Origin: Promethearchaeia archaeon
Lineage (GTDB): Archaea > Asgardarchaeota > Lokiarchaeia > Sigyniarchaeales > SOKP01
Length of the DNA stretch: 64,000 bases
Reading direction: 5' to 3'
Assembly: GCA_029856155.1 (NCBI GenBank)
Contig: JAHQWL010000040.1
Coordinates: 96,001 to 160,000 of the forward strand
Part shown: one piece after another, positions 30,697 to 57,297 of the stretch
Layout of the letters: each line of letters starts with the position of its first letter
Position numbering within the stretch: position 1 is the first letter of the stretch
Position numbers and translations under genes: made by a program
The notes under the pieces: model-generated
What the model was told of the DNA's origin: nothing
The model's input: only the letters and a program-made list of their open reading frames with translations
Databases searched by the model: none

Positions 30697-30896
30697 ATGG
30701 CTGATTATAAAAGAGTAAAATGTCCTAAATGCGGAAATGATAATCCACGGATGCTTCATGAAGAACCGGATAAGAGTATTGTACTTTACTATAGTATAAG
30801 TATCGCTTTTTCAGCATACTGCTAACGCAGGGTACTCCGGTTTATGCAAAAAACATGAAGTGTGGAGGATGCGGAAATCTTTTTAAAAAGGAGTAA
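30697..30896 (+). CDS. 56-aa zinc-ribbon protein split by a 29-nt BHB intron (exons 30697-30797, 30827-30896)
   Basis: Spliced product MADYKRVKCPKCGNDNPRMLHEEPDKSIVLYYSMQGTPVYAKNMKCGGCGNLFKKE joins CxxC and CxxC; the unspliced frame stops at TAA 30823. Confidence 0.85.
30798..30826 (+). other. BHB-type mRNA intron, 29 nt
   Basis: Central helix TAGT(30792-95)/GCTA(30821-24); bulges AT^A and AC^G; inner helix AGTAT/ATACT; excision restores the frame. Confidence 0.85.
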
Positions 30897-38338: not shown

Positions 38339-39481
38339 ATGCCGAAAAAAGTATTAATAGCTTCTGAATCAGCTTATCGTAGGAATTTATTATCTGAAAT
38401 GCTTTCTTCACATGATAAAATAATTATAGCTGGTATTGCGCGAAATGGACAAGAAGTATTCAATATCATTAGAACGATAGAACTTGATGTGTTAATTCTC
38501 GATATTGAGTATGAAAATAAAGAATGGTTATAATCATTTAATCTTTTAATAGACCAATTCAATATTCCTACTATTGTGTTGACAGATACAAATCCGAAAA
38601 ACGTAAGTTCCTTTGAAATACCAATAATCCAAAAATCTTATGATTATATTGTTAAACCTAGTGGTATATGGAAAAATGTACTCCCAACTATCAAAGAAAA
38701 TCTAATTTCTAAAATTCGAATGATAGATCTCTCTAAAATACAGAAAATTGGCAGTAAATCGAGATTATTAAATAAGGATTCTGTAATTCAGCAAAGTCAG
38801 AAATTGAGAATAAGGAGTGAAATTCAATTAAATAAGATTTTAGAATCATCTTTAGAGGATAGAGCTGAAGAGTTCTTTTTAGAGATATCATCTATTACGA
38901 TAACAAGATTACCTACGCCAATTATTGTTATTGGTGCGAGTGTAGGTAGTCCTAGAACATTAAGAACAATTCTAAGTGAAATTCCTCCCAATTTTCCTGC
39001 ACCAATTTTAGTCGTCCAACATTTAAATCATCTTTTCATGCGTCAATTTGTGATGTCACTTAAGGATATTTGTAAAGTAAATGTAAAAATAGGTATAAAT
39101 TACGAAGAAATAAATCCCGGTACTATTTACTTTTCTCCAGGAGATAAACATATGCAGGTTACGGTTAAAAATGATAAACCTTTCATAAGAACTTTTGAAG
39201 GGGAACCAGTAAACTTCTGTAGACCTTCTGTAGATGTGTTATTTTATTCAACAGCACGTGTATATAAAGAAAAATCCCTTGGTATTTTGTTAACTGGAAT
39301 GGGAAGAGATGGAGTGGCGGGATTAAGAGCGATTAAAGAGGAGGGTGGAAAGACTATAGCAGAATCCAAAGAAACAAGTGTATTATATGGAATGCCTAAA
39401 GTAGCTGCTGAAACTGGAGTAGCAGATTTAATAATACCTAATTACCAGATAGTTAACGAAATGATCAGATTTATTAGTTAA
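38339..39481 (+). pseudogene. cheB: CheB-like receiver + methylesterase interrupted by an in-frame TAA at 38531
   Basis: Both ORF pieces share one frame and are collinear with CheB (LILDIE...IPTIVL; GASVGSP, QHL, RPSVDVLF, LTGMGRDG, YGMPK). Confidence 0.8.
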
Positions 39482-39513
39482 AATTTATTAAGGAAAACCA
39501 ACATTTTATCATA

Positions 39514-39699
39514 ATGAGCTCAGAAATTAGTGAAGAAGTTAAGAAAGAAATTTTTGACTTAATTTCGACTCCTGGAATTGAGATTGAAGATATTAGCGAA
39601 AAGGTAAACTTAGATTGTGATACAATTATGAATATTTTATCTGAAGAATACTTAAAACATGATTTGAATCATGGTCGTAGGCTATGTTGTAGATTTTAA
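39514..39699 (+). CDS. Small hypothetical protein, HTH-like
   Basis: 61 aa; IEIEDISEKVNLDCDTIMNILS. Confidence 0.5.
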   Translation: MSSEISEEVKKEIFDLISTPGIEIEDISEKVNLDCDTIMNILSEEYLKHDLNHGRRLCCRF

Positions 39700-39903
39700 T
39701 TTAATTCTGGAAAAATTTTTTAATGTTGTTTTATTCTAAAACTTACTAAGTTTAAAAAAATATTATTCTAAGAAACTTAGGACGCAAATTTGTGCGGTTT
39801 CAATATAATAAAAATATTGAAATGGAAATAAATTGTAATTTCGCGTTCCTACCTTTTAGAATATTTTTTAAACCCAGATTTATTAAAAAAACGGTGAGAG
39901 TAT

Positions 39904-40471
39904 ATGAGTGAAAAAGGAAAAATTGTTGTAAAGGCTCTTGTGACTGGTGGGAGTGCTTATATTTAATAATCATTTCGATTAAACCCCAAATGCATCAGGA
40001 GGGCCGCCTATTGCATAAAGCGTATCGCTTTTGTCAAATTAAGGTAAAGGTCCCTCCGTAGGCCCCACGGGCATAAATATAAAAGACGTGGTCGACGAAA
40101 TCAACAAGCAGACACAGGTATTTAGGGGGTTAACGGTACCCGTTAGAATTGAATGCGATCCAGAGACAAAGCAATTTGAAATCTTCATTGAAACGCCTTC
40201 TACAGCATCATTATTACTGAAAGAAGTTGGTGTTGAAAAAGGGAGTTCTAGTTGTTCAGAAACAAAAATAGGAAATTTGACACTTGATCAAGTTCAAAAC
40301 GTAGTGAAGGCTAAAACAGATAAATTTTTGGATAAAACAATTAAAGCAGGTATAAAAACAGTGTTAGGTACAGCATTATCAGTGGGGTTAACGGTAGAAG
40401 GGCAAGATCCAAGAGCAATCCAAAAAAAAATAGATAATGGGGAATTTGATGATATCATAAGAGGTGATTAA
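39904..40471 (+). CDS. rpl11: 50S ribosomal protein uL11 split by two BHB introns (exons 39904-39953, 39991-40011, 40048-40471; 164 aa)
   Basis: Spliced N-terminus [46 protein letters not shown] matches the conserved uL11 proline-switch motif; first gene of the L11-L1-L10-L12 cluster. Confidence 0.93.
39954..39990 (+). other. BHB-type mRNA intron 1 of rpl11, 37 nt
   Basis: Helix TGGG(39948-51)/CCCA(39985-88); bulges AG^T and AA^T; internal TTTAAT/ATTAAA stem; contains an in-frame TAA and shifts the frame. Confidence 0.88.
40012..40047 (+). other. BHB-type mRNA intron 2 of rpl11, 36 nt
   Basis: Helix GCCT(40006-09)/AGGT(40042-45); bulges AT^T and AA^A; outer stem GGAGGGCC/GGTCCCTCC; internal AAAGCG/CGCTTT hairpin; in-frame TAA at 40016 and 40040. 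Confidence 0.9.
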
Positions 40472-40477
40472 GAAAAT

Positions 40478-41206
40478 TTGAAAGTCGATGATAAATTATT
40501 AAAGAAATCGTTAAACGCTGCTATTAATTTTTCTATAATGAAGAAAGAAGGATTTAAAGAAAAAGTTAGGAAATTCGACGAGTCTATTGATCTCATAATT
40601 AATATTAAAGATATTAACTTAAACGATCCAAAAAACAGAATTGATAAAGAAATTATCTTATCAAATGAAGTAGTTTCAAATGATAAGCCTAGTATTTGTG
40701 TAATTGCGTCAGATGAGATTTTACTAGAGGCGAAAAAACTTGGGATAGACACTCTAGATTCCAGCGGTTTGATTAATTTGAATAATGAAGAGAAAAAATA
40801 TAAGAAAAAATTTGCCAAAAAATATGAATATTTTGTTGTAGAAGATAAAATGATGAGAGATGTTGCTCGATACTTAGCAAGATTTCTTGGTCCAGTTGGT
40901 AAAATGCCAAAACCTTTCCCTACAGGATATGGGATCATTTCCAGCCCAGAAGATTTAAACGTCGCTTATGAGCGATATAAAAAAATAATTAGGATTCAAA
41001 TGAAAAAGCAACCAATTATTTTCGCTAAAATCGGTAAAAAATCTCTGGACAGGGAGAAGTTATATGAAAATATTAAGGTTGTAGTGAATTTTATTGCTGA
41101 TCAAATGCCACATAAATTTAACAACTTTAAATCTATGTATCTTAAATCTACAATGGGAAAACCCGTGAAAGTGACAGAAGAGTTCCTAAAAAGTATTGAG
41201 GTGTGA
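40478..41206 (+). CDS. rpl1: 50S ribosomal protein uL1
   Basis: RKFDESIDLIINIKD, LGPVGKMP, KSTMGKPVK. Confidence 0.95.
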   Translation: MKVDDKLLKKSLNAAINFSIMKKEGFKEKVRKFDESIDLIINIKDINLNDPKNRIDKEIILSNEVVSNDKPSICVIASDEILLEAKKLGIDTLDSSGLINLNNEEKKYKKKFAKKYEYFVVEDKMMRDVARYLARFLGPVGKMPKPFPTGYGIISSPEDLNVAYERYKKIIRIQMKKQPIIFAKIGKKSLDREKLYENIKVVVNFIADQMPHKFNNFKSMYLKSTMGKPVKVTEEFLKSIEV

Positions 41207-41210
41207 AATA

Positions 41211-42104
41211 ATGATTAAAAAAAAACATATACCACAATGGAAGATAGATGAAATTAATCATTTAATTGATTTATTTAAAAATTATAAGAACATCGCTGTA
41301 ATCGATGTTGCTCATATAAACGATATGCAATTTCAAACAATGAGGAAAATTTTGAGAGAAAAAGCAATATTTAGGATGTCTAAAAAATCACTTCAATTAC
41401 GAGCAATAGAAGGGTTTAAAAGTGAAGCTAAAAAGAAAAACTTAGATGAATTTGCAAATCATATTCCTGGACAATCTAGTCTTGTATTTACAAATATTGA
41501 TCTTTTTGAATTAAAAAAGATATTTCTTGAAAATGAGTGGATGGTACCAGCAAAACCCAATGAAGTTACTCCCGTAGATATATGGGTTCCAGCGGGTGAT
41601 ACTGGTTTGCCCACAGGACAAGTAATTAGTGAATTGAATATGACATTGCGATTACCAACGAGAATTATGAATGATACGATACACGTTCGTGAAGATACAA
41701 GAACCCATAAAGCTGGTGATGTAGTTAATGTTAAGCAAGCAGCAGTTTTAAAAAAGTTGGGAATTACACCAATAGAATCATTGATAAGAATTCACTTTGC
41801 GTGGAGCGACGGTGAAATAATCCCTGAAGAAATCTTATATATGGATATGGTAAAATTCAGACATGATGTTGCGAGAGCTTATAGAGAGGCACTAGGAATT
41901 CTTTTTGACATGCCATTCTATTCAGAGGAAATGACGGATGAATATATTCGGAAAGCTGTATCTGAATGTAATACAATAGAAGCAATGATCTTTGGAGAGG
42001 GGATCAAGTTATCAGCTGAACCAGAATCTAAAGTTGAAGAAAAAGAGGCTGAAGAGGAACCCGAGGAGGAAGAAGAAGTTGGTATTGGAGGTCTTTTTGG
42101 ATAA
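41211..42104 (+). CDS. rpl10: 50S ribosomal protein uL10 (P0)
   Basis: IPQWKIDE, VPAGDTGLPTG, LKKLGITP, acidic tail ending GIGGLFG; start at ATG 41211. Confidence 0.95.
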   Translation: MIKKKHIPQWKIDEINHLIDLFKNYKNIAVIDVAHINDMQFQTMRKILREKAIFRMSKKSLQLRAIEGFKSEAKKKNLDEFANHIPGQSSLVFTNIDLFELKKIFLENEWMVPAKPNEVTPVDIWVPAGDTGLPTGQVISELNMTLRLPTRIMNDTIHVREDTRTHKAGDVVNVKQAAVLKKLGITPIESLIRIHFAWSDGEIIPEEILYMDMVKFRHDVARAYREALGILFDMPFYSEEMTDEYIRKAVSECNTIEAMIFGEGIKLSAEPESKVEEKEAEEEPEEEEEVGIGGLFG

Positions 42105-42179
42105 AAAATTAAGATTTTTTGAAATTTTACTTAAAATTACTAATATTAAGATAAAAAAATAAAAAAGAGGTTAAATTTT

Positions 42180-42470
42180 ATGGAAAGTATTTACGCTGCC
42201 TTATTATTACATAAAGCTGGAGGAAAAATTAACGAAGCGAATGTACAAAAGGTATTAACTGCCGCAGGTGCGAAAGTTGATAAAGATCAAATCGTTAAAT
42301 TAATTGCTGGATTAAAGGAAGCAGATATTGATGAAATTATAAAATCTGCTGGGTCTATGCCGGTAATTGCAGCTCCTGCTGGAGGAAAAACTGAAAAAAA
42401 GCAGGAAAAAAAGCAGGAAAAAGAAGAAGAAGTCGAAGAAGAGCCTACGGGGATTGGATCCCTTTTTTAA
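42180..42470 (+). CDS. rpl12: 50S ribosomal protein P1/L12
   Basis: MESIYAALLLHKAG...EEEEVEEEPTGIGSLF. Confidence 0.95.
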   Translation: MESIYAALLLHKAGGKINEANVQKVLTAAGAKVDKDQIVKLIAGLKEADIDEIIKSAGSMPVIAAPAGGKTEKKQEKKQEKEEEVEEEPTGIGSLF

Positions 42471-57204: not shown

Positions 57205-57297
57205 TGGCGGCCCTCGAGGGGAATCGAACCCCTATCCCTCCGCAGGATAACTGGGTTTGAAGCCCAGTGTCAGAGACCACTCCAACCGTCAAGGGCC
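57205..57297 (-). tRNA. selC: tRNA-Sec (UCA), 9/4 archaeal/eukaryotic fold, encoded CCA, intronless
   Basis: GGCCCTTGA/TCGAGGGCC+GCCA 9-bp acceptor, 7-bp D stem, ACTGGG-CTTCAAA-CCCAGT, long variable arm, 4-bp T stem. Confidence 0.93.

Follow-up and report, generated by a model that had tools for sequence, protein, structure and literature searches.

A ribosomal protein uL11 gene with two predicted BHB introns and a 21 nt micro-exon in an Asgard archaeal genome

The window analysed here is a stretch of 64,000 nucleotides from a metagenome-assembled genome (MAG) of a Loki-type Asgard archaeon (Promethearchaeota), in 104 contigs (4.1 Mb, approximately 30% GC, 97% complete, 5.7% contamination). 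It contains a ribosomal-protein cluster in which the gene order downstream of uL11 matches the usual archaeal L11–L1–L10–L12 arrangement. A CheB methylesterase gene (Pfam 5e-56; window positions 38576–39481) lies just 5' of the cluster; spt5/nusG, the usual archaeal neighbour of rpl11, does not adjoin it in this window. A single tRNA was called in the window by ARAGORN, a tRNA-SeC (anticodon tca, 93 nt, 57205–57297, minus strand), which could be a true selenocysteine tRNA or a miscalled interrupted tRNA.

The mechanical list of open reading frames starts uL11 at position 40088, as an earlier reading of the letters alone (the sequence-only reading) had stated; the start codon there is GTG and the product has 127 amino acids. 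Against Pfam Ribosomal_L11_N (58 positions) this frame matches positions 31–58 only and falls below the family cut-off. The same reading had proposed that the conserved N-terminus lies upstream, split by two BHB inserts around a 21 nt micro-exon, and the same coordinates were obtained here (Table 1). A scripted splice (50 + 37 + 21 + 36 + 424 nt) joined the three exons into a frame encoding a uL11 of 164 amino acids. Without splicing, exon 1 is read for 20 codons up to a TAA, and stops close the micro-exon's frame on either side. Exon 3 was matched by Pfam PF00298 (3.4e-17) and by part of PF03946, and shares 74–95% identity with its congeners. The joined protein aligns without gaps over 164 residues with the intact orthologs of related genomes (up to 89% identity); an intact ortholog, used as a stand-in for it, carries full PF03946 and PF00298 domains. 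When the entire genome was searched for the family, a single uL11 copy was returned, and the second intact rpl11 that the sequence-only reading had named as evidence against splicing was not found in this 97%-complete genome.

Table 1. Features of the uL11 locus, insertion sites among congeners and genes of the splicing machinery. Positions are those of the window unless a contig of the genome (C) or a position in the coding sequence is given; ^ marks a predicted cut.
Feature	Position	Strand	Remarks
uL11 exon 1	39904–39953	+	50 nt; ATG start; codons 1–16 and two bases of codon 17
Intron A (site A)	39954–39990	+	37 nt; HBh'-type BHB intron (predicted); exactly absent in intronless congeners
Micro-exon	39991–40011	+	21 nt; last base of codon 17, codons 18–23, two bases of codon 24; (S)ASGGPP(I)
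Intron B (site B)	40012–40047	+	36 nt; hBH or bulge-helix-loop BHB type (predicted); exactly absent in congeners
uL11 exon 3	40048–40471	+	424 nt including TAA stop; remaining N-terminal domain and RNA-binding domain
uL1, uL10 (P0) and P1 genes	40478–42470	+	uninterrupted; Pfam matches and ORFs; 3' of uL11
Intron A, central helix H, 5' strand UGGG	39948–39951	+	exon 1 side; partner CCCA 39985–39988
Intron A, bulges AG^U and AA^U	39952–39954 and 39989–39991	+	cut after second bulge base
Intron A, inner hairpin UAAUC/GAUUA	39967–39981	+	5 nt loop AUUUC; MFE fold; pairs covary in alignment A1
Intron A, set-back exon–exon helix, 5' strand	39935–39944	+	partner 39992–40001 in micro-exon; tentative
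Intron B, outer helix h, GGGCC	40001–40005	+	partner GGUCC 40049–40053; 5 bp
Intron B, central helix H, GCCU	40006–40009	+	partner AGGU 40042–40045; one G:U
Intron B, bulges AU^U and AA^A	40010–40012 and 40046–40048	+	cut after second base
Intron B, hairpin (h')	40013–40035	+	loop GUAUC closed by C:G; G:C to A:U compensation in four sequences
Insertion site A, congeners	after coding nt 50		inserts 28–38 nt; 16 distinct versions
Insertion site B, congeners	after coding nt 71		inserts 30–36 nt; 13 distinct versions
Insertion site D, congeners	about coding nt 83		inserts 28–30 nt
Insertion site C, congeners	after coding nt 100		inserts 28–29 nt
EndA alpha	C13:3758–4354		Tyr/His/Lys triad kept; best alignment chain B of PDB 3p1z and 3ajv
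EndA beta	C52:106867–107475		Ser at catalytic His; best alignment 1a79
RtcB	C83:60896–62203		single copy

Each insert had been described as bounded by a 4 bp helix with 3 nt bulges, and all of the named elements are present, but the description of the two motifs had to be refined. Intron A has no outer helix adjacent to the 3' bulge; the helix formed between its two exons is set back by a 3 × 3 internal loop. Its helix h' is paired at four of the first five positions in this genome, and the inner stem is imperfect. Intron B takes the bulge-helix-loop form, its 5' bulge lying opposite a 6 nt spacer between H and the hairpin, and the micro-exon supplies the 5' strands of both its h and its H. 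Flanking helices h and h' beside the bulges are thus present in introns A and B in a relaxed sense only, relaxed motifs being those that retain one or both of these helices. Fully canonical hBHBh' motifs were found in the uL11 genes of relatives, at site B of the locus L059 and in all copies at site D, and site C of relatives shows a clean HBh' motif with a 7–8 bp stem. At sites B and D the exons form a 5 bp stem with a 7 nt loop and the intron follows the sixth loop base, a geometry that would correspond to an anticodon arm with an intron at 37/38. All of the mini-introns at sites A–D, together with one in RNase HII described below, share a hairpin with a 5 nt loop NNNUC closed by C:G (AUUUC, AAUUC, GUAUC or AUCUC). 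The tRNA introns that this genome has according to ARAGORN lack the hairpin.

Folding of the single sequences gave a z score of +0.62 for intron A, which is not significant, and of −1.85 for intron B, which is modest. The BHB fold has an energy of −4.3 kcal/mol against −8.6 kcal/mol for the local MFE fold of intron A, and of −18.5 against −22.4 kcal/mol for intron B. That the motif of intron A is thermodynamically weak and is not the MFE fold counts against a BHB, as do its lack of an adjacent outer helix and, for intron B, the larger loop around the 5' bulge and a fourth H pair that is open in six of 13 versions. Because the single-sequence folds are weak, support beyond chance comes from comparison.

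The comparison drew on the uL11 loci of 39 out of 41 related genomes and of 80 named public records, almost all of which are labelled as Asgard (mostly Promethearchaeota) MAGs. Alignment of the related rpl11 genes, which had been suggested as a check on the introns, showed the inserts to be either shared or lacking exactly at the predicted junctions: in many congeners both inserts are missing to the base. Approximately 100 uL11 loci of the same genus have insertions at four sites, which span about 50 nt and lie within the first 105 nt or so of coding sequence (Table 1). About half of the distinct uL11 alleles carry no insert, and the other relatives have one, two or three introns. Introns A and B occur together in this genome, L038 and L041, and all of A, B and C in L004, L033 and L034; the combinations A + D, A + C and B + C are also found in congeners. 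Six aligned loci from other families of the order are uninterrupted, and the uL11 matches from other families are open frames of at least 162 amino acids, save for one partial match. One intronless uL11 from a metagenome (L116; JABAHP010011664.1, positions 1496–1522) has exon junctions identical to those of carriers, GGGAG^TGCATCAGG and CCTAT^AGG; this allele could be a target that no intron has occupied, or what a precise removal of both introns left behind. When metagenome contigs were scanned for exact matches to the spliced A junction, two records were returned, one of them L116; both are intronless genomic alleles, as upstream intergenic DNA is present.

The position of the cuts was examined with a register test, in which the deletion was slid from −8 to +8 nt (17 shifts) for 52 distinct intron copies at the four sites. 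Each register was scored for pairing between four exon bases and four intron bases, both sets ending two bases short of the end of the exon or intron, and the local peptide was recorded. Cutting after the second bulge base, the BHB rule invoked by the sequence-only reading, gave back the conserved peptide in all 52 copies, and the register that restores the peptide had the best total pairing score in 48 of them. In the in-frame register the central helix is paired at four of four positions in 45 copies and at three of four in the other seven. By site, H is fully paired in 16 of 16 versions of intron A and at three or four positions in the 13 versions of intron B, six of which have the fourth pair open.

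Two alignments, A1 (16 versions of intron A) and A2 (13 versions of intron B), were analysed for pairing and covariation. Sliding by one column lowers the share of paired cells from 90.8% to 66.5 and 60.4% in A1 and from 90.0% to 50.9 and 55.5% in A2. Each alignment contains 14 cells in which both sides have changed, with a covariation of 0.308 in A1 (0.138 shuffled) and 0.215 in A2 (0.137 shuffled); none of 500 shuffles reached the observed values, although the sequences are kin and the significance is therefore overstated. The first H pair of intron A shows compensation, being U:A in nine versions, U:G in three and A:U in four. Helix h of intron B is paired in 98.5% of cells, and its middle pair is A:U, G:U or G:C in 12 of 13 versions.

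The exons are also adapted to the introns: the choice among synonymous exon bases goes together with whether an intron is present. The exon half of H at site A reads NGGG, which involves the synonymous third position of a Gly codon, in 15 of 15 carrier alleles and in seven of 63 non-carriers. At site B it reads GCCU in ten of 12 carriers and six of 66 non-carriers, and at site C it reads GCAU in 19 of 19 and ten of 62, respectively. The set-back helix of intron A has on average 8.27 of nine possible pairs in carriers and 6.03 in non-carriers; compensatory changes in this helix were not found among the aligned alleles.

The genome encodes two EndA paralogs of approximately 200 amino acids, each with both EndA domains, and an RtcB (Table 1). 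Chain B of PDB entries 3p1z and 3ajv is the catalytic subunit of a crenarchaeal EndA heterotetramer, and the paralog with Ser at the catalytic position would fit the role of a structural beta subunit. Kaneta et al. (2018; PMC5829648) described Asgard EndA as an (alpha-beta)2 enzyme with a loop linked to a broad substrate range. The host therefore appears to be equipped with an endonuclease able to take relaxed motifs, the broad specificity being adopted from PMC5829648, and with the RtcB ligase. Across the whole genome ARAGORN recognized only 23 tRNA genes, 11 of them with introns (9–529 nt); many tRNA genes are probably too interrupted for recognition. The low count and the share with introns agree with a 2026 preprint reporting that Asgard tRNA genes are heavily interrupted.

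The uL11 inserts are real and very probably spliced; that they are mRNA introns removed by EndA and RtcB is the reading that we hold with high confidence on comparative grounds. The four exon bases 5' of each 5' splice site would pair with the four bases ending two nucleotides short of the 3' end of the intron to form helix H, leaving one 3 nt bulge at each junction. A heterotetrameric (alpha-beta)2 EndA would cleave after the second base of every bulge and RtcB would ligate the exons. Production of the only uL11 of the cell would require the loss of both introns and the retention of the micro-exon. We infer cleavage and ligation, as well as their order and their timing relative to translation. 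A further consideration speaks against this scheme: archaeal translation can begin on nascent RNA, and splicing 50 nt past the start codon must consequently outrun the ribosomes.

Other ways of accounting for the inserts were weighed against splicing by EndA and RtcB. The inserts might be excised from RNA by a different nuclease and ligase, or by an unknown hairpin-excision system akin to SOS splicing. Intron A is a poor canonical BHB, and the NNNUC hairpin closed by C:G is common to all of the introns even though the EndA rule does not need it; a hairpin-triggered, RTCB-dependent system that excises transposon ends in animals is described in PMC12779559. Against this, the junctions of the 52 copies match the EndA rule exactly at four sites of differing sequence, and what is conserved and covaries is the 4 bp exon–intron helix with its 3 nt bulges, which is the signature of EndA rather than of a mere hairpin. 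We consider such a system unlikely.

It is very improbable that the RNA stays uncut and the ribosome passes the inserts by programmed bypassing or frameshifting. In this genome, TGC stands at both ends of intron A, which makes the boundary ambiguous and would allow a hop from GCU to GCA to yield the same peptide. The repeat is peculiar to this genome, however, and is missing from the intron A carriers L009, L011 and L036 (AG^AGU...AAG^UGC), which settle the boundary, since Ser-Ala-Ser is obtained only with GGGAG^UGC. The codons where a ribosome would take off and land at intron B do not match, insert lengths of 28–38 nt place the exons in differing relative frames, and the frames of exon 1 and the micro-exon both meet stops within intron A. 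Bypassing would moreover need two or three hops within 100 nt of an essential, highly expressed gene. A bypass of the T4 gene 60 type was rejected on the same grounds, the codon match being confined to intron A of this genome and absent from L009, L011, L036 and intron B.

The gene might instead be decaying, or the 127-residue product from GTG 40088 might alone be made, with exons 1 and 2 as relics. Gene callers do return exactly this truncated protein. It would, however, lack the first 30 of the 58 positions of the N-terminal domain, in a genome where uL11 is single-copy. None of about 40 distinct carrier alleles has an exon stop or frameshift. The exon 1 peptide is conserved in carriers and non-carriers alike, with changes mainly at third positions, and the micro-exon, cut by the BHB rule, shows only synonymous differences among carriers, so that the peptide of both is unchanged over many carrier species. 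Variable sites in codons 7–40 number 10, 9 and 34 at positions 1, 2 and 3 in carriers and 10, 7 and 34 in non-carriers; the interrupted genes are therefore under the same protein-level selection. We give decay very little credence. An assembly or binning artefact, for which the origin of the sequence in a MAG of many contigs with some contamination might speak, has a negligible probability: the contig is long with normal flanking genes, the inserts carry their own substitutions in dozens of independent assemblies from different projects (closed chromosomes included), and the existence of both insert-carrying and insert-free relatives rules out an assembly artefact as well as a private pseudogene.

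Several classes of element were also rejected. At 36–37 nt the inserts are far from the hundreds of nucleotides of a group I or group II ribozyme core. A search of positions 39400–40700 against Rfam gave no credible match, the one hit being a chance-level sRNA (E 0.54) below the cut-off. An intein is excluded by the in-frame stops in both inserts and by a length of 37 nt, which is not a multiple of three. A MITE-like DNA element does not fit: target-site duplications are absent, and the terminal complementarity joins an exon strand to an intron strand (helix H) rather than one end of the intron to the other.

Turnover of the introns was estimated on a tree of exon 3 and uL1 with 86 distinct rows. 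The minimum numbers of state changes were 12 for intron A (15 carriers), 11 for B (12 carriers), 16 for C (18 carriers) and two for D (four carriers). Near-identical sisters differ: L076 has no intron and L080 has B, while L062 has B and L101 has A and C. This scattered presence on the tree points to fast gain and loss. Introns at the same site diverge by 0.24–0.28, about half of the 0.45–0.48 observed at third codon positions of exon 3; the low divergence could reflect either constraint, or a spread or loss that outpaces the divergence of the host gene.

Similar introns were sought elsewhere in the genome. A 30 nt in-frame insert with two stops was found in the gene for RNase HII (G000:C83:92757–92786, outside the window). 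Its hairpin has the loop AAUUC closed by C:G, and its deletion gives back the conserved GIDEAGR^GSVLGPMV, a design like that of the uL11 introns. Within the window, at positions 30697–30896, a small Cys-rich (zinc-ribbon-like) ORF ends with TAA after ...SAYC, and a tail containing CGGC lies downstream in another frame; the intervening stretch has a hairpin with a UAUCG loop that resembles intron B. In a census of the 4.1 Mb genome, both strands were searched for motifs with H paired at 4/4, h' at 6/7 or more and a length of 24–45, and each candidate was assessed for whether its deletion fuses two open frames. The 78,055 candidates fused frames no more often than controls with lengths altered by ±1 or ±2, and counts stayed at control level after restriction by length, perfect stem or loop motif; the method is too noisy for a genome of 30% GC. 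Within the loop-motif subset, RNase HII was the one convincing candidate. A covariance model (R1), for which 18 introns of 28 nt were used, gave weak hits and did not discriminate, with best E values of 0.65 in the genome and 0.077 in the window.

The introns may form a fast-turning-over, possibly mobile, family of 28–38 nt hairpins that would settle where Gly/Pro-rich coding sequence of the form GGNCCN supplies the exon half of the motif. A wider reading, which we regard as evenly poised, is that tRNA-type splicing is a routine part of mRNA maturation in this Asgard genus, with NNNUC mini-introns hopping in and out of coding genes within short evolutionary times, settling where the coding sequence supplies the exon half of a BHB and making core genes multi-exon with micro-exons. 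The anticodon-arm-like GGRCC-N7-GGUCC hairpins of the Gly/Pro motif of uL11 would, on this same evenly poised reading, be an example of a landing site.

The sequence-only reading had also expected annotation pipelines to miss such introns, and this is borne out in the databases. The public uL11 proteins of carriers bear the name L11 although they are truncated, to 118 or 127 amino acids, or have their first codon within an intron (MSSNGK..., MPSASGG...). Four of them from carrier MAGs, annotated at NCBI as '50S ribosomal protein L11' (P0031, P0052, P0066 and P0085), have 118–150 amino acids and start in an intron or past the third intron. Gene callers systematically shorten such genes in Asgard MAGs, which affects marker phylogenies that use uL11 and estimates of completeness. 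For the biology of the host, an essential and universal ribosomal gene would need two splices, or three in a sister species, and would include a micro-exon of seven codons. Through the comparison, splice sites, RNA motif and enzymes all become open to direct testing, and the alleles with and without introns provide a natural series for studying how BHB introns arrive and depart. For the prokaryotes most closely related to eukaryotes, the introns also pose the question of how splicing is fitted to transcription and translation that are coupled. If mRNA splicing is indeed routine there, the lineage nearest to eukaryotes would offer a precedent for intron-rich genes in a prokaryote, and one that does without a spliceosome.

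Full-text literature searches returned no paper that describes BHB introns in protein-coding genes of Asgard archaea, and in the literature searched the only confirmed BHB intron in an archaeal coding sequence is the single one of cbf5. The cbf5 pre-mRNA intron is known from Desulfurococcales and Sulfolobales (Watanabe 2002; Yoshinari 2006; Yokobori 2009, PMC2738675). Like the uL11 inserts, it is a short, frame-breaking BHB intron within coding sequence, its removal is attributed to a hetero-oligomeric EndA, its presence and loss are lineage-specific and it has been annotated as a frameshift. The cbf5 intron, however, is a single one at a single site, belongs to Crenarchaeota and has descended for the most part vertically, with a few losses. 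In uL11, a universal ribosomal gene, of this Asgard genus there are two introns (three in a sister species) around a micro-exon, four sites fall within about 50 nt, and at least 12, 11 and 16 state changes are required for A, B and C on the tree of 86 alleles. In Haloferax volcanii, the HVO_1309 mRNA has a BHB intron in its 5' UTR (Schwarz 2020, PMC7714728). The splicing endonuclease cuts that mRNA both in vivo and in vitro (PMC7714728). It is a single euryarchaeal case with a homodimeric EndA, and the intron lies in an untranslated leader that leaves the coding sequence intact.

Archaeal tRNA genes offer structural parallels: the same hBHBh', HBh' and hBH classes, the same cut rule, very short exons between introns, recurrent gain at sites able to fold into the motif and, at sites B and D, mimicry of an anticodon arm with a 37/38 intron. 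The uL11 introns differ in that the host is an mRNA with no tRNA body to hold the exons together, the frame would have to be restored to the base and splicing would compete with translation. The HAC1/XBP1 mRNA loses a short intron by unconventional splicing in the cytoplasm, independently of the spliceosome, at stem-loop sites and with a change of frame, the ligation being performed by RtcB in animals. There the nuclease is Ire1 and splicing is regulatory and induced by stress, whereas in uL11 the nuclease would be EndA and splicing is presumably constitutive and obligatory. Taken with these systems, the comparative data suggest that uL11 extends the cbf5 type of mRNA BHB intron to a multi-intron core ribosomal gene of an Asgard lineage.
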